A DNA stretch of 63,414 nt, counting the filler. It is 9 parts of 9 records of this genome, joined end to end, with 100 filler letters (N's around TTAATTAATTAA, not from the genome) between each part and the next. Parts side by side here need not be neighbours in the genome. Positions count along the whole stretch, not along the records: positions 18,014 to 23,247 come from SRR7504441_144; 8 more parts are not named here. One strand, given 5' to 3'. Shown here piece by piece: positions 13,109 through 57,455 of this stretch. The position numbers and the translations under genes were made by a program. How positions within the stretch are numbered: position 1 is the first letter of the stretch; each line of letters starts with the position of its first letter. The notes beneath the pieces were generated by a model. It had not been told where the DNA came from and searched no databases. It saw only the letters and a program-made list of their open reading frames with translations.

Positions 13109-13208
13109 NNNNNNNNNNNNNNNNNNNNNNNNNNNNNNNNNNNNNNNNNNNNTTAATTAATTAANNNNNNNNNNNNNNNNNNNNNNNNNNNNNNNNNNNN
13201 NNNNNNNN
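13109..13208. other. Artificial contig spacer
   Basis: 44 N + TTAATTAATTAA + 44 N; same spacer at 17914, 23248, 29481, 40424, 47121, 50668 and 57356. Confidence 0.98.
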
Positions 13209-17913: not shown

Positions 17914-18013
17914 NNNNNNNNNNNNNNNNNNNNNNNNNNNNNNNNNNNNNNNNNNNNTTAATTAATTAANNNNNNNNNNNNNNNNNNNNNNNNNNNNNNN
18001 NNNNNNNNNNNNN
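17914..18013. other. Artificial contig spacer
   Basis: N44-TTAATTAATTAA-N44. Confidence 0.98.
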
Positions 18014-18255: not shown

Positions 18256-18273
18256 TAACGGATAAGATAACGG
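18256..18273. promoter_or_regulatory. Two tandem TAACGG motifs in a 32-bp divergent gap
   Basis: ATAACGGATAAGATAACGGATG between ATG 18241 (-) and ATG 18274 (+). Confidence 0.65.
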
Positions 18274-19023
18274 ATGCCGCTGTGTTGGATCGGCGCCGCT
18301 CTCGCGGGAGCGCTCCTGCACCGGGCGCTCCGGCCACACCGGGCGCAGCCAGAGCACCGTGCTTCCTCCCGCGCTGACCGGCTTCGGGCCGCGGCCGGGC
18401 GCCGGCTGGCGGGGCTCCGAGTGGTTCTGGACCGGGTGGGCGACGCCGGGAACAGGGCCGCGGTGCTGAGGACCTGCGAGGCTTTCGGGCTGCTGCACGT
18501 GCACGAGATCCCGCCGCCTGGCGGGCTGTACGCCACCTCAGCTGGTCGGTCCACTGTTAACGGGGCCGAGAAATGGCTCCGAGTGCACACCCACGGCTCG
18601 GCTGCCGAGTGCGTCGGGGCGCTCCGGGGGGAAGGGTTCACCGTGCTCTGTGCTAAGCCGCCCCAGCCAGCTGATGACCGGCTGTCGAGCAAGCCGGTGC
18701 CGCTCGACCGGATCGACTTCGGGCGTCGGGTGGCTTTGGTGTTTGGGAACGAGCGGTTTGGTGTGTCGGCGGAGATATCGGAGCAGGGCGACGCCGACTT
18801 CTGGATCCCGACCCCGGGGCTGAGCGAGAGCCTGAATGTGAGCACGGCGGTGGCGGTGGCCGTGCACTGGGGACGGGTGTCGCGGGAGAGGGCGTTGGGG
18901 CGAGGCACGGATCTGAGCCCCGGCGAGGCGGAGCAGCTGTTGGAGGAGTATACAGAGCTCAAGCCGCACTTTGTAAAGCAGGTGCCCGGCCCGGTGGGGG
19001 GGGTGCGAGCCGCTGCAGGTTAA
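18274..19023 (+). CDS. Second SpoU/TrmH-family RNA methyltransferase
   Basis: VVLDRVGDAGNRAAVLRTCEAFG, ALVFGNERFGVS, IPTPGLSESLNVSTA; the 3' end may be spliced. Confidence 0.9.
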   Translation: MPLCWIGAALAGALLHRALRPHRAQPEHRASSRADRLRAAAGRRLAGLRVVLDRVGDAGNRAAVLRTCEAFGLLHVHEIPPPGGLYATSAGRSTVNGAEKWLRVHTHGSAAECVGALRGEGFTVLCAKPPQPADDRLSSKPVPLDRIDFGRRVALVFGNERFGVSAEISEQGDADFWIPTPGLSESLNVSTAVAVAVHWGRVSRERALGRGTDLSPGEAEQLLEEYTELKPHFVKQVPGPVGGVRAAAG

Positions 19024-19210: not shown

Positions 19211-20524
19211 TCAGTTCCCCCGCCCGGCCCCGTCTTTAAATGTTTTCATCGCCGTTGCAATTCGGCGCGCCGCCTCTTCGTGGGCCTCCGGCGGCGACGC
19301 GGCCCAGCACGCTCGAAAGAACCCCGGCTCTGACGCAAAGCAGTCCTGCCCGGGTGTTAGCAGAACACCTCCGCCGTCTGCGGCCGGGTCTGTCCCGTGC
19401 ATAGTGGCAAACAAATTCCGTTCGTCCTCAAACGTCGCCCCTTCCCGGGGCAGCGCCGACCTAAGGTCCAGCCAGGCAAACATTGCAGCCCCGCCACCGT
19501 AAACAGGCACCCCTTGGCCACTCAGAGCCGCTTGGAGGCCCCCGAAAGATGACCGCAGCGCGGCGCGGTTCTCCTCCAGGAATTGATCAACCCACCCGAC
19601 ATCGTTGAGCACCTCGGCCACTCGCTCCTGGTGGGGCCCGGGGACGGTGGTCATGTACCCAAGGTTCCCCCAGGCGCTCTTTACCTCTTCGTGGCGAGTA
19701 GCGATAGCCCCGATCCGAAACCCGGAGACACCAAAGTCCTTGGCCAGGCCGTAGACTACGTGCACGCTCTGCGCCGCCGCCTCCGGCCCTGGCAGCTCCA
19801 TGGCCATGTCCCAGGCGCTCTCTCGCCTCAACTCGAGGCCGTCCCCAAACACACTGGCGGCATAGATCTCGTCAGCCACAACGTGCATCCCCTTCCGCAC
19901 AGCCCATTCGATCGCCCGCTGCATCCATGCGCCTTTCCACACGGTGCCGAGAGGATTGGTCGGATTTGTCAACAGAAGAACGCGCGGCGTGTTTCCAGCC
20001 GCTGTGGCCGCCGCGTGGGCCTCCTCGAGCGCCGCGATAGTTGGGAAGAATTCACTCCGTCGTTCTGTTGGCACCAGCTGCACCTTCACGGCCGCGCGCG
20101 ACTCCAGGTCGTTGATGAATGTCGGGTACAGCGGGGCTGGCAGCAGGCAGGCGTCGCCCGGATCACACAGGATGTGGAACAGCGTGTCGAGGCAGCTGCC
20201 GCAACCATTCCCCACCACCAAATCGTCCGCCTCCACTGCGTGCCGGCGTGTCACGTGCCGGCTCATGAACCCAGCCAGGGCCTCCCGTAACTGCGAGGTT
20301 CCCCGAAAGTCCTGGTAATAGAGGGAATCGCGGCTCGGGGAGGAGGAGGCGGCCTTCCAACGATCTCGGAAGGTCTCTGACATGAGCCTGTTCTCGGCGA
20401 TGACCATCGTAATGTTGCCCTGCGGATCGGACGGGGTCCAGGGCCGCTCCAGCGCCGCGAAGGTTATCGGGAAGTAAGACGAGAGCGGGACCAGCGCCCG
20501 CGAAGCCCGTCGCGAGAGAGCCAT
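19211..20524 (-). CDS. ACC-synthase-like PLP-dependent class I/II aminotransferase
   Basis: IAENRL, YQDFRG, TNPTNPLG, VVADEIYAASVF, YGLAKDFGVSGFRIG (PLP Lys), EPGFFRAC; intronless. Confidence 0.88.
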   Translation of the reverse strand: MALSRRASRALVPLSSYFPITFAALERPWTPSDPQGNITMVIAENRLMSETFRDRWKAASSSPSRDSLYYQDFRGTSQLREALAGFMSRHVTRRHAVEADDLVVGNGCGSCLDTLFHILCDPGDACLLPAPLYPTFINDLESRAAVKVQLVPTERRSEFFPTIAALEEAHAAATAAGNTPRVLLLTNPTNPLGTVWKGAWMQRAIEWAVRKGMHVVADEIYAASVFGDGLELRRESAWDMAMELPGPEAAAQSVHVVYGLAKDFGVSGFRIGAIATRHEEVKSAWGNLGYMTTVPGPHQERVAEVLNDVGWVDQFLEENRAALRSSFGGLQAALSGQGVPVYGGGAAMFAWLDLRSALPREGATFEDERNLFATMHGTDPAADGGGVLLTPGQDCFASEPGFFRACWAASPPEAHEEAARRIATAMKTFKDGAGRGN

Positions 20525-20570
20525 GTGGCCTCGTTCACGCTGGCACACGCCCCGGTGCTGTCGTTGCTAA

Positions 20571-20576
20571 TAACGG
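20571..20576. promoter_or_regulatory. TAACGG motif in a 62-bp divergent gap
   Basis: Between ATG 20524 (-) and ATG 20587 (+). Confidence 0.6.
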
Positions 20577-20586
20577 AAAATCCCAC

Positions 20587-23031
20587 ATGTCAACAGGAGG
20601 TTCTGCTCCCCTCTGGGTGTGTGGAGCGTGCCTGCTGATCTCCTGGCTGCTCCGGCGGCCGCGTCGAGCACCCGCAGCGCTGGACGCACCGCCAGGCCCC
20701 GAGCAGCCGCCTCATATCTTCATCTCTTACGGTACTGCACCCTTGCCTTCTCTGTGGCCAGCGCAGTGGGTGGCGCAGGCCGCGGAGTGGCGACCAGCTT
20801 GGCCAAGGCGCTGTTCGCGCAGCTGTCGGAGCGCGGCTTCGCCGTTTTCCTGGACACAGCATCTCGCGGCACCCCAGCTATACCCGCTGGGGCGTGCTTT
20901 CGGAGCGCCATATTCCGTGCAATCGAAGAGTGCCCTGCGCCCGGGTCTGGCTGGGGCAGACACGGCCAACCAGGTGCGTGGTGTTTGTGGCGGTGGTCAA
21001 TGAGCGGTTTCTCCAGTCGAGGTGCGGCCTGCTAGCAGCAATCGGCCCGATCAGCGGGCCAGCTTCTGCGCCGCTGAGCTCAAAGCGGCACAAGCGGCCA
21101 ACAAAGCGATCCTGCCGATCATGTTGGATGAATTTGAGCCGCCGTCGTCCCTCGCGCCGGCTGTGGCACGCGTGCAGTGGTCGCTGCCTACCTGCGCCCG
21201 CTAATGTGTATTAAACTCTTGACTGCGGCAGGTTGCGGTTCCCTTCGGACACCACAGGCCAGCAGTACAGAAGAGCCTTTGACAAGCTAGTTTGCAGCCT
21301 GGAGGGTCACCACGGTGCAACTGCTGTGCAGCCGCTGCAGATGATTGCTGGCTGTCAGCCGTACATCCGGAATCCACTTACTACTCCCAGACTAATATAT
21401 TTCCTGTATCCGAGCTGGCCCAGGCTACAGACAATTTCTCCGACAATGCGGTGACGAAATGGCAGCTGTTAGCCAGCAGGCATGCAGGTTGTTGGAAGCG
21501 GTTCGTTTGGAACAGTGTATCGTGGCATAGTGAGGGGTCGCGCCGTTGCTATCAAGGCAGCCATCAATCGTGAAAACACCAAATTATGTGTCCGTACCTG
21601 CAGGTTCTCCGGAGTAGTCCCGACCTGGATGCCCGAGAGAAGCAACGCCGGGCCTTTGAAAGGGAACTGCGAGCTCTGTCGAATGTGGCGCATCCTAATA
21701 TTGTGCCATTTCTTGGAGCCTCGGTGCGCCTGAAGCGGCGGTGGCAAGTGAGAGAGTTTACAGGTCGCATCGCCACAGTGTTTAGTGTTTGAACTGATGC
21801 ACAACGGCACTCTGAGAGAACAGTTGGATGGAACGCGAAACACGATGCCACACAACTGGGGCTGCAGGTGCTTTCAATCATGAATTGAAACTGGGCCTGC
21901 AAAGTCAGAGGTAACAGAAGGCAGGCTGAATGTTCTGGTCGAAGCCGCACGTGGGCTAGCTTTCTTGCACGCCAGGACGCCGCCGGTGATACATAGGTGA
22001 CCGGGCTTGTATTGCGCGTTAGACGCATTCAAACGAATACGTGCGTGCAGGGACTTCAATGCGCGTAATGTGCTGCTTGATAGTACAATGAGTGCGCGCG
22101 TGGGCGACTTTGGACTGGCACGCGCGGAGCTCAACGGGGACTCTGCAGAGTTTGGTGGATCATTTCTCTACTTGGATCCAGAGTATGTCGGATAATGGCA
22201 GTAGTAGCAGTGGCGCACGCAATCGCGTTTGTGCTGAGCTCCAGGTGACTGCAGGTATGTGATGAGCGGAGTGGTGGCTCCAACGATTGATGTCTGGTGC
22301 TTTGGATGGTTCGCGTTAGAGGTGACGCGGCCTGCAGCCAGCCACCGCTGACTGTGACGTTGGCCAGGTGCTAACCGGCAAGCCTGCTCTCGATCGCCAC
22401 GGGACACACCTTCGCATGGTCTGCCCTCCAAGTTCTACTTGCGTTAACACCGGGTATCGACAGCTGTTGGAGACAGCAGCGAAGTCGAGAGTGGCACGTC
22501 TTAAGCTGTGCGATAAGCGTTGCCTGGATGCCCCGCCGTGCATGTTTGAGCGGGTTCTTGATATCGGTGTGCCTCGAGCCACTCCGCTGCTCTGACAACG
22601 CTTTGTGTGGCAGCTGAGGAGTGTATGGCTGTACCCAGCAGTGCGCGCCCACAAATGGCACAGGAACCCGCAAATACAAGGCCATAGCACTCCTAATGCC
22701 ATTGCTGGGCAGGTGGCTCGCAAATTAGAGGCCAAGCAAGTATCTCATTCCGCGACCGAGTGGCGCTGCACGGTCTGTCTGCAGAGAAGTTTGCAAAGCT
22801 CTAGTAGCTGCTCTGGTCCCAACCAAGCTACACTCTAGTTGTGCTGACTGGCGTACAGTGTGCGGCAGGAGTCGCGATTCCCCAGAGGTTCCTCTTAAAT
22901 CAGGCGGAATGTGGTTCAATCAAGTCAAAATCGACATGGCCAATTTACCTTCACCACGACAGTCAAAGAAGCGTATTGAATCGACTCTCCTGGTATTGCT
23001 GGCCGTGTCTCTCGTTTATAGTTTGGCCTGA
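20587..23031 (+). CDS. Membrane-anchored TIR domain - RLK/Pelle-type kinase - RanBP2/NZF-type zinc finger fusion (~555 aa, 16 introns)
   Basis: Hand-spliced introns: 20732-20778, 20930-20973, 21022-21062, 21180-21231, 21306-21358, 21451-21487, 21557-21603 (GC), 21724-21763, 21868-21924, 21997-22050, 22183-22254, 22322-22367, 22419-22463, 22567-22613, 22664-22712 (GA), 22816-22858. Result is one open frame of 1671 nt: HIFISY..GFAVFLD..FLQSSFCAAEL..ILPIML; FPVSELAQATDNFS, GSGSFGTVYRG, VAIK, HRDFNARN, DFGLAR, YLDPEY; WRCTVC-x10-CSVC. Confidence 0.85.
22664..22712 (+). other. Putative GA-AG intron
   Basis: CAG|GAACCC...CCTAAT...GGGCAG|GTG removes an in-frame TAG and restores RPQMAQVARKLE. Confidence 0.6.
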
Positions 23032-23209
23032 ATAATAGCTGTCACAGGAGAGGCTCTCGGCTCCGTTATCGCGACCAGCAAGCAATGCCCTGAAAATAAC
23101 ACCTGGCAAAGCCGCTGTGAGCGCGCCTAAGATAAATATCTGCGACTTTGCACGCTTCACAATGGAAACCGAGAGTAATCGGTCGAATCAGTCGACAATT
23201 AGCTCCTCC

Positions 23210-23247: not shown

Positions 23248-23347
23248 NNNNNNNNNNNNNNNNNNNNNNNNNNNNNNNNNNNNNNNNNNNNTTAATTAAT
23301 TAANNNNNNNNNNNNNNNNNNNNNNNNNNNNNNNNNNNNNNNNNNNN
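23248..23347. other. Artificial contig spacer
   Basis: N44-TTAATTAATTAA-N44. Confidence 0.98.
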
Positions 23348-29480: not shown

Positions 29481-29580
29481 NNNNNNNNNNNNNNNNNNNN
29501 NNNNNNNNNNNNNNNNNNNNNNNNTTAATTAATTAANNNNNNNNNNNNNNNNNNNNNNNNNNNNNNNNNNNNNNNNNNNN
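29481..29580. other. Artificial contig spacer
   Basis: N44-TTAATTAATTAA-N44. Confidence 0.98.
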
Positions 29581-40423: not shown

Positions 40424-40523
40424 NNNNNNNNNNNNNNNNNNNNNNNNNNNNNNNNNNNNNNNNNNNNTTAATTAATTAANNNNNNNNNNNNNNNNNNNNN
40501 NNNNNNNNNNNNNNNNNNNNNNN
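40424..40523. other. Artificial contig spacer
   Basis: N44-TTAATTAATTAA-N44. Confidence 0.98.
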
Positions 40524-47120: not shown

Positions 47121-47220
47121 NNNNNNNNNNNNNNNNNNNNNNNNNNNNNNNNNNNNNNNNNNNNTTAATTAATTAANNNNNNNNNNNNNNNNNNNNNNNN
47201 NNNNNNNNNNNNNNNNNNNN
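47121..47220. other. Artificial contig spacer
   Basis: N44-TTAATTAATTAA-N44. Confidence 0.98.
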
Positions 47221-50667: not shown

Positions 50668-50767
50668 NNNNNNNNNNNNNNNNNNNNNNNNNNNNNNNNN
50701 NNNNNNNNNNNTTAATTAATTAANNNNNNNNNNNNNNNNNNNNNNNNNNNNNNNNNNNNNNNNNNNN
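50668..50767. other. Artificial contig spacer
   Basis: N44-TTAATTAATTAA-N44. Confidence 0.98.
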
Positions 50768-57355: not shown

Positions 57356-57455
57356 NNNNNNNNNNNNNNNNNNNNNNNNNNNNNNNNNNNNNNNNNNNNT
57401 TAATTAATTAANNNNNNNNNNNNNNNNNNNNNNNNNNNNNNNNNNNNNNNNNNNN
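57356..57455. other. Artificial contig spacer
   Basis: N44-TTAATTAATTAA-N44. Confidence 0.98.

Follow-up and report, generated by a model that had tools for sequence, protein, structure and literature searches.

TIR domains and protein kinases of the Pelle/IRAK/receptor-like kinase (RLK) type are the two components of innate immunity which animals and plants share most widely, and they normally meet only via adaptors. In the Myddosome (MyD88-IRAK4/IRAK1) and in the MyD88-Tube-Pelle system of Drosophila, TIR and kinase are found on separate proteins which are joined by death domains, and IRAK4 is activated in the Myddosome by induced proximity. Here we describe a gene which joins both modules in one predicted protein. 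It was found at positions 20587-23031 on the + strand of the window, i.e., the whole stretch of DNA analyzed (63,414 nucleotides, nine contigs joined end to end). Some fusions of this kind are on record. In choanoflagellates, ‘Kinase TLRs’ consist of leucine-rich repeats (LRR), transmembrane segment, kinase and TIR, while ‘Kinase TIRs’ combine kinase and TIR without a transmembrane segment (Richter et al., 2018, eLife, PMC6040629). The passages of that paper used here propose that the fusion bypasses recruitment of separate kinases such as IRAK, and call these architectures unique to choanoflagellates within the data set of the study (PMC6040629). For plants, ‘TIR-Pkinase’ is listed as a class of R genes in the relevant part of PMC4234491. 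TIR genes of Gephyrocapsa huxleyi with a conserved Glu were found induced in virus-infected and resistant cells, according to the sections considered of PMC12489294, and the portion of PMC11249213 used here links TIR domains overwhelmingly to immunity or cell death across life.

The region 20587-23031 is one intron-dense nuclear gene of an uncultured marine protist, real and partly expressed. Read from the predicted protein, the order of parts is an N-terminal hydrophobic segment, a TIR domain, a linker of ~30 amino acids (aa) with a juxta-kinase motif, a kinase domain, a four-cysteine finger and a hydrophobic tail. The features of the gene are given below in window coordinates.

20587..23031, + strand: whole coding region, 559 aa plus stop; from the joined-exon model and junction tests
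20587-20731, 20779-20929, 20974-21021, 21063-21179, 21232-21314, 21359-21450, 21488-21556, 21604-21723, 21764-21867, 21925-21996, 22051-22182, 22255-22321, 22368-22418, 22464-22566, 22614-22663, 22713-22815, 22859-23031, + strand: the 17 exons
20605..20652, + strand: hydrophobic segment near the N-terminus, aa 7-22, with RRPRR behind it; may be a signal anchor, though marginal
20716..21289, + strand: TIR domain, aa 44-173, exons 1-5 with introns 1-4 inside; from a local TIR_2 hidden Markov model (HMM) and hhalign
21076..21078, + strand: codon of Glu120 (CAAEL motif), in the column of the conserved Glu when aligned with the TIR_2 set
21315..21358, + strand: intron 5, 44 nt, GT-AG; alone separates the final TIR exon from the first exon on the kinase side
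21397..21441, + strand: juxta-kinase motif IFPVSELAQATDNFS, aa 195-209, exon 6
21488..22730, + strand: protein kinase catalytic domain, aa 213-474, exons 7-16; from Pfam PK_Tyr_Ser-Thr, full-length alignments and collinear exon matches on the kinase HMM
21494-21511, 21554-21556, 21992-22069 and 22106-22114, + strand: kinase motifs, namely G-loop GSGSFG, Lys235, HRDFNARN (loop split by intron 10) and DFG
21557..21603, + strand: intron 7, 47 nt, GC-AG, right after the VAIK lysine; without RNA cover
21997..22050, + strand: intron 10, 54 nt, GT-AG; skipped exactly in an X5 RNA contig
22183..22254, + strand: intron 11, 72 nt, GT-AG; skipped exactly in the same X5 RNA contig
22664..22712, + strand: intron 15, 49 nt, GA-AG, non-canonical donor; skipped in an X10 RNA contig
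22761..22863, + strand: four-cysteine finger W-x-C-x2-C-x10-C-x2-C, aa 485-504, includes intron 16; pattern match, joint seen in X10 RNA
22816..22858, + strand: intron 16, 43 nt, GT-AG, splits the zinc finger; skipped in an X10 RNA contig
22981..23028, + strand: hydrophobic tail at the C-terminus, aa 544-559, with KKR in front; candidate tail anchor

The initial annotation knew of no described protein with this architecture and left its novelty unverified. A general lack of precedent could not be upheld, since kinase and TIR in one chain are already reported for choanoflagellates (PMC6040629) and, by category, for the plant ‘TIR-Pkinase’ class (PMC4234491), as far as the parts of these sources used here extend. 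The fusion as such thus has precedent, mainly in choanoflagellates with the opposite order; what appears to be new, judged from the predicted protein, is the TIR-first order, the hydrophobic ends and the Cys4 finger. The literature searched for TIR-kinase fusions yielded these two sources alone, and a protein of the type anchor-TIR-RLK/IRAK-like kinase-finger-tail was not described there, a scope outside of which supplementary tables and architecture databases lie. The choanoflagellate fusions share with the present protein the presence of kinase and TIR in one polypeptide, and the Kinase TLRs are membrane proteins as well; there, however, the kinase precedes the TIR domain, while here the TIR domain precedes the kinase (passages used from PMC6040629). 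Moreover, as far as these descriptions go, Kinase TLRs carry an LRR ectodomain and Kinase TIRs no membrane segment, whereas two hydrophobic ends, a Cys4 finger and no ectodomain were found here. This comparison sets published description, not choanoflagellate sequence, against the present protein. With the plant ‘TIR-Pkinase’ class, known by its category name, the gene shares the same two Pfam domains in one predicted protein (PMC4234491, relevant part), but the organism is not a land plant. The G. huxleyi proteins resemble it as marine microalgal TIR proteins with the catalytic Glu, some of them membrane-bound with a cytosolic TIR domain, but they are described in the sections considered as having no additional signaling domains (PMC12489294), while kinase and finger follow the TIR domain here.

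Two further systems resemble the kinase part. As in the Myddosome, a TIR adaptor function would lie upstream of a kinase of the same family, and IRAK4/IRAK1 are among the best solved-structure matches; different are the missing death domain and the catalytic loop HRDFNARN, which lacks the Lys of the family. The plant RLKs and receptor-like cytoplasmic kinases (RLCKs) SymRK, BRI1, FERONIA, CERK1, PBL2 and BIK1 provide the best kinase matches and share the juxta-kinase motif, but possess ectodomains or lipid anchors instead of a TIR domain.

Removal of 16 introns from 20587-23031 yielded a single open frame of 1680 nt including the stop (559 aa, 17 exons). Introns were placed such that the recognizable TIR and kinase pieces join in frame. 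The proposed 16 short introns and one frame of ~555 aa were thereby borne out, and all peptides quoted at that stage were found in the three + frames of 20500-23100. The introns measure 37-72 nt (mean 47.8) and the exons on average 99 nt, corresponding to 9.5 introns per kb of coding sequence. Fourteen introns have GT-AG borders, intron 7 has GC-AG and intron 15 GA-AG; mixed GT/GC/GA donors are known from dinoflagellates. All 16 introns end in CAG, and a G precedes the donor in 14 of them. The following exon starts with G in 11 of 16 cases and with GT in 11 of 16, giving a proto-splice-site-like context. A shortest-path model with the fewest GT-AG introns was also obtained; it contained 9 introns and gave a junk translation, because GC-rich frames stay open by chance, and it was discarded.

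For the examination of splicing, public metatranscriptome and metagenome contigs were aligned to 20400-23200. They originated from the runs X1 (DNA), X5 (poly-A RNA), X10 (RNA, another study) and X13 (RNA library). Four of the 16 junctions (introns 10, 11, 15 and 16) were seen directly in RNA contigs from two studies, X5 and X10, so that the RNA check suggested initially succeeded for these, while exons 1-9 had no spliced RNA contig. The X10 contig shows that the kinase end, the finger and the C-terminal exon belong to a single RNA. At intron 15 a 4-nt repeat permits five placements of the skipped piece; only 22664-22712 gives an AG end, and this placement begins with GA, which argues that the GA donor is real. 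For intron 7 only one placement keeps AIK together with an in-frame join to VLRSS, and the kinase alignment shows no gap there. Intron 13 would stay in frame if retained; it is backed by its GT-AG ends, its typical length and a fragment of a relative (P0028). Spliced RNA covering exons 13-14 was likewise not present among the RNA contigs on 20400-23200. The absent cover of exons 1-9 and 13-14 is not read as a lack of expression.

Comparison with relatives and with a related strain agreed with the exon borders. In the kinase multiple alignment none of 11 junctions coincided with a gap. P0028, an open reading frame (ORF) fragment from the protein library with 53% identity, continues without a break past the positions of introns 10-13. 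P0008 (62% identity) covers exon 9 only, and its similarity ends at both predicted exon borders. The large protein libraries contained only such ORF fragments of environmental relatives, including P0028, P0008 and P0016. DNA contigs of X1 with 95-99% identity to the window cover 21242-21432, 21439-21847, 21999-22262 and 22952-23200. Altogether 15 single-base differences were counted in the contig alignment: 9 exonic ones of the X1 strain, located in exons 5, 6, 7, 8, 9 and 11 and all synonymous in the predicted frames (9/9), 4 non-coding ones (three in introns, one past the stop) and 2 non-synonymous ones. The first non-synonymous difference changes Ala482 to Gly in an X10 RNA contig. The second converts the stop TGA to GGA at 23029 in an X1 contig of low depth (3.7), which also lacks one base at 23015; these changes would alter the end of the tail anchor, or they may be an assembly error. 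Among the environmental sequences, P0016, P0008 and P0224 (ENA contigs of up to 4039 nt) are pieces of a related gene with the HRDFNARN loop. P0016 has an in-frame insertion of 18 residues between LLD and STM. This points to an extra intron in this relative and hence to putative intron gain or loss within the family.

The TIR domain was analyzed with a local HMM built from an alignment of 15 stretches of five bacterial genomes scoring above the cut-off of Pfam TIR_2 (PF13676), which served as a proxy for Pfam's own model. The spliced protein matched this HMM with 33.2 bits (independent E-value 1.8e-9) over aa 44-159, corresponding to profile positions 1-118. No more than 5.5 bits were obtained with 500 shuffles of aa 31-200, and no more than 2.9 bits with 150 library kinases. 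Using hhalign, aa 30-185 aligned to the same TIR_2 alignment with 97.4% probability (E 9.2e-12, 117 columns). The match passes introns 1-4, with a one-residue insertion at junction 1 as the sole irregularity. The TIR domain named at the outset was therefore supported, with 33.2 bits over the full length of this proxy profile compared to at most 5.5 for the shuffles. Exon 2 also gave Pfam matches to FR47 and GNAT, which were weak (E 0.062 and 0.23) and were rejected.

In NADase TIR domains the conserved Glu is the catalytic residue; it is needed, yet insufficient, for NADase activity. The Glu predicted for this position was indeed present: Glu120 falls into the conserved column of the TIR_2 set, which shows a W-x-x-x-E-L / C-L-x-E-I pattern and corresponds to the helix alpha-C position. 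By alignment, the TIR domain carries a Glu at the putative NADase catalytic position.

The kinase was recognized already at the level of single exons. Pfam PK_Tyr_Ser-Thr matched exons 7, 8, 9 and 11 at profile positions 7-34, 39-69, 74-102 and 127-155. Exons 7 and 9-12 share one common frame, so that the direct read-through of 21488-22321 (P0001, with X at stops) could be used; it gave 49.2 bits with PK_Tyr_Ser-Thr (E 5.7e-13). Alignments of the spliced kinase (aa 190-480) to library kinases extended over its full length and scored 127-167 bits. All kinase motifs, i.e., G-loop, VAIK Lys, HRD, DFG, DPE and RP-x-M, are intact. By its motifs the kinase is complete and active-looking, and its nearest relatives by sequence are plant RLK/RLCKs and IRAK4. 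In the PDB search with the kinase, rows 1-31 were SymRK, BRI1, FERONIA and IRAK4, and EGFR appeared in row 32 as the first member of another family. For the relative P0028, 56 rows stood ahead of the first B-Raf, 50 of them named plant RLK/RLCK or IRAK1/4 and 6 with uninformative names. A search of 1.84 billion representatives yielded 752 matches at E 0.001 or better, of which the 150 best were used for local re-scoring, loop counts and TIR scans. The 20 best full-domain matches comprised 15 land-plant proteins, 1 sponge IRAK4-like protein, 1 Pelomyxa protein and 3 without name; where Pfam was run, the land-plant proteins were RLKs of the WAK, LysM, malectin and LRR types. The motif IFPVSELAQATDNFS ahead of the domain aligned to an F-S/T-x-x-E-L...T-x-N-F motif in 6 of 7 full-length kinase domains, including plant RLKs, the sponge IRAK4-like P0079 and Pelomyxa P0048. 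The top match of the representatives search, P0002 (1069 aa), consists of 15 tandem copies of a ~53-aa piece with catalytic loop and DFG and could represent either a repeat artefact or an unusual protein made of repeats.

The catalytic loop of the kinase differs from that of the family. The Ser/Thr-type loop H-R-D-x-K-x-x-N is absent; in HRDFNARN an Asn replaces the Lys of Ser/Thr kinases and an Arg follows two residues on, which is tyrosine-kinase-like. Among the 150 best matches, x-R-D-x-K-x-x-N was found in 127 and the Arg type in 4, including P0028; the HRDFNARN-type loop is common to P0028 and P0016. A death domain was not found. The segment aa 1-43 contains the anchor and a Pro-rich stretch, followed by TIR (44-173) and linker (174-212), and because aa 1-212 are taken in this way, room for a death domain of ~80 aa is lacking. 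The missing death domain together with the tyrosine-kinase-type loop indicates that the kinase is not an IRAK/Pelle orthologue. Of the RLK/Pelle-type kinase of the initial annotation, the relationship therefore stands, based on the RLK/Pelle/IRAK best matches and the juxta-kinase motif, but not an IRAK/Pelle orthology. Membership in RLK/Pelle/IRAK is a probable assignment taken from best matches rather than from a tree with outgroups.

The two hydrophobic ends were both detected by hydropathy, as claimed initially, the N-terminal one being marginal. The latter showed a mean Kyte-Doolittle value of 1.99 over 15 residues and no 19-residue window above 1.6. The tail forms the hydropathy maximum of the protein (2.36 over 15 residues) with its sole 19-residue window above 1.6, and its layout is that of a candidate tail anchor. 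The finger had been compared with the NZF ubiquitin reader TAB2/3. RanBP2-type fingers (PF00641) follow the pattern W-x-C-x(2,4)-C-x3-N-x6-C-x2-C, and ubiquitin-binding NZF fingers carry a T-F pair after the second Cys. Here the W, the four Cys and their spacing (C-x2-C-x10-C-x2-C) fit, but a Ser is found at the expected Asn and L-Q at the T-F position. Only the finger pattern was retained, and without Asn and T-F the analogy to TAB2/3 has no basis. In five bacterial genomes searched for members suited to a profile, nothing above the PF00641 cut-off was found.

The TIR and kinase exons are separated only by intron 5 (44 nt), and the indirect evidence points to a single chain. An X1 DNA contig of the related strain (21242-21432) bridges exon 5, intron 5 and exon 6; in these two exons 3 of 3 substitutions are synonymous, and one further change lies in intron 5. 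Upstream of the G-loop, Met codons occur only as M1 and as M135, which lies within the TIR domain; since no in-frame Met follows M135 until M287, a separate start for the kinase N-lobe is lacking. Two adjacent genes wrongly joined, a TIR-only protein and a kinase-finger protein, would suit a very compact genome with ~60 bp between divergent starts and the lack of an RNA contig bridging exons 5 and 6. We consider this very unlikely, since 44 nt with GT-AG ends separate the two halves, the frame is unbroken, the kinase N-lobe lacks a Met, and the TIR frame read through intron 5 stays open for at least 34 more codons with the first stop only inside intron 6, i.e., without a prompt terminator. We regard it as even more improbable, close to negligible, that the gene is a chimera of the assembly or a pseudogene in decay. 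The window represents a binned genome with contigs joined by linkers, and the GC content at third codon positions (GC3) of the gene is 0.61 compared to 0.75 and 0.82 in its neighbors, which would be in line with such an origin; but the gene lies within one contig, 95-99% identical contigs from a second sample span 21242-21847, 21999-22262 and 22952-23200, the kinase motifs are all intact, substitutions are synonymous and spliced RNA is present.

We are aware of several observations which weigh against the reading of the locus as a single TIR-kinase protein acting in signaling. No bridge between exon 5 and exon 6 was found among the RNA contigs, thus TIR and kinase on one mRNA were not directly seen, and exons 1-9 had no spliced RNA cover in the region aligned. 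An X13 RNA-library contig (21780-21988) retains intron 9 (21868-21924), which leads to a stop after 5 codons; it may represent unspliced RNA, DNA carry-over or regulated retention. Identification of the TIR domain depends on a home-made profile. Pfam runs with the single TIR exons 1, 2 and 4, all short queries, gave no TIR match. The PDB search with exons 2 and 4 returned chance matches only (OMP decarboxylase, E 1; a designed TIM barrel, E 0.044) and no TIR domain, and in the ESM Atlas exon 2 hit GNAT clusters at 0.92, but with 114 of 256 shared features, which is chance level, and again no TIR domain. The N-terminal hydrophobic stretch comprises only 16 residues and is marginal. A TIR-like N-terminus was absent from all of the 150 nearest library kinases, which thus provided no further case of the architecture, and a synteny search via the neighboring aminotransferase led to two loci, L002 (2.4 kb, 64% identity) and L003, without similarity to the TIR-kinase gene. 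Finally, clustering, NADase activity, substrates and the link to immunity are predictions.

Other searches for relatives gave similar results. Local phmmer runs of aa 1-200 and aa 470-559 against the 150 best kinase matches found nothing at E up to 10. No longer protein scored in a homologue search with exon 2 and exon 11, and a scan of JGI metagenomes with exon 2 produced 598 pattern matches, of which none was confirmed.

The gene lies on its own contig (18014-23247) next to two further genes:

18271-19020, + strand: SpoU methylase, single open frame, full Pfam coverage, GC3 0.82
19211-20563, - strand: class I/II aminotransferase, single open frame, full Pfam coverage, GC3 0.75

Two single-exon genes thus adjoin an intron-dense gene on one contig, with a contrast in intron density and codon use. 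The start of the aminotransferase was placed near 20526 by reading the sequence, ~60 bp from the ATG at 20587 and on the opposite strand, which leaves 20526-20587 as a very short shared promoter region between divergent starts. With the aminotransferase ~60 bp upstream, an upstream exon, and hence an ectodomain, is unlikely. Named relatives of the aminotransferase show at most 40% identity (green algae, Euglena, Pyramimonas), and a 56% match is an unnamed EukProt transcript. Parts of the locus occur in sequencing runs from marine, seawater, estuary or aquatic metagenomes. The rest of the window contained no further TIR or kinase exons, and neither Rfam families nor tRNAs were found in the window. 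Its nine contigs are joined by N44-TTAATTAATTAA-N44 linkers (N-TTAATTAATTAA-N) at 13109-13208, 17914-18013, 23248-23347, 29481-29580, 40424-40523, 47121-47220, 50668-50767 and 57356-57455; genes on different pieces imply neither neighborhood nor a common organism. A GGCAAG-type microsatellite at the contig end (23215-23247), just before the linker, is probably the cause of the assembly break.

For the function, we propose a membrane-held adaptor-kinase in which clustering of the TIR domains would switch on the kinase, and give this proposal about an even chance of being correct. Anchored by both hydrophobic ends, the protein would sit on the cytosolic side of a membrane. The chains would be clustered by TIR-TIR association, either among themselves or with a different TIR protein, and the clustered kinase domains would phosphorylate each other and relay a stress or immune signal. 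Through the same clustering, an NADase site of the TIR domains might also be assembled around Glu120. With the next gene starting ~60 bp upstream, a sensor ectodomain cannot be accommodated, which argues for the role of an adaptor-kinase. By analogy, the protein may be a fused counterpart of MyD88 and IRAK, comparable to the choanoflagellate Kinase TIRs as the passages used describe them. An immune or cell-death role, also suggested initially, is something we only infer.

The roles of the two domains could also be reversed, with the TIR domain as output and the kinase as control, giving an enzyme at the membrane which cleaves NAD+ to cause cell death or produce a signal, with auto- or trans-phosphorylation as the switch of its TIR activity. 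Glu120 in the catalytic column of TIR_2 would fit such an enzyme, although this residue is necessary but insufficient for activity. With the TIR domain ahead of the kinase, the protein is laid out like an adaptor with an effector kinase behind it, kinases of the RLK/IRAK family are normally the signaling output, and no NAD-related partner is encoded on the 5.2-kb contig; we therefore regard this reversal as unlikely, even when the induction of conserved-Glu TIR genes in virus-infected and in resistant G. huxleyi (PMC12489294, sections considered) is counted in its favor. An ordinary stress, nutrient or developmental kinase, in which the TIR domain would be a generic oligomerization module without a role in defense or cell death, appears to us just as doubtful. 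RLK/Pelle kinases have many non-immune roles, the contig neighbors (SpoU methylase, aminotransferase) are not defense-related, and 9 of 9 synonymous substitutions reflect purifying selection, not diversification. Yet the conserved Glu suggests a retained enzymatic constraint, and across life the role of TIR domains is overwhelmingly one in immunity or cell death, according to the portion of PMC11249213 used here. The adaptor-kinase switched on by TIR clustering thus remains our preferred reading.

A more far-reaching interpretation, which we regard as speculative and rather improbable, would be that a lineage outside animals and land plants has wired an NADase-competent TIR domain to a Pelle/IRAK/RLK-type kinase as a ‘one-chain Myddosome’, membrane-held at both ends and without a sensor. 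The link from TIR to Pelle-type kinases would then be much older than animals or repeatedly invented, and the tyrosine-kinase-like loop, which environmental relatives conserve, would mark a new subfamily, possibly of dual specificity. As a natural fusion, the protein offers a simple test object for the question if TIR clustering alone is enough to switch on a kinase of the RLK/IRAK type, and it is also suited to the question of coupling between NAD+ cleavage and phosphorylation. Together with the choanoflagellate Kinase TIRs, as far as their description was used here, it suggests more than one origin of the direct wiring of TIR to kinase. Genes cut by many introns of ~48 nt, some with GC or GA donors, are invisible to the ORF-based annotation of metagenome bins. 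As the large protein libraries contain only ORF fragments of the relatives, immune-type architectures in protists are probably under-counted.

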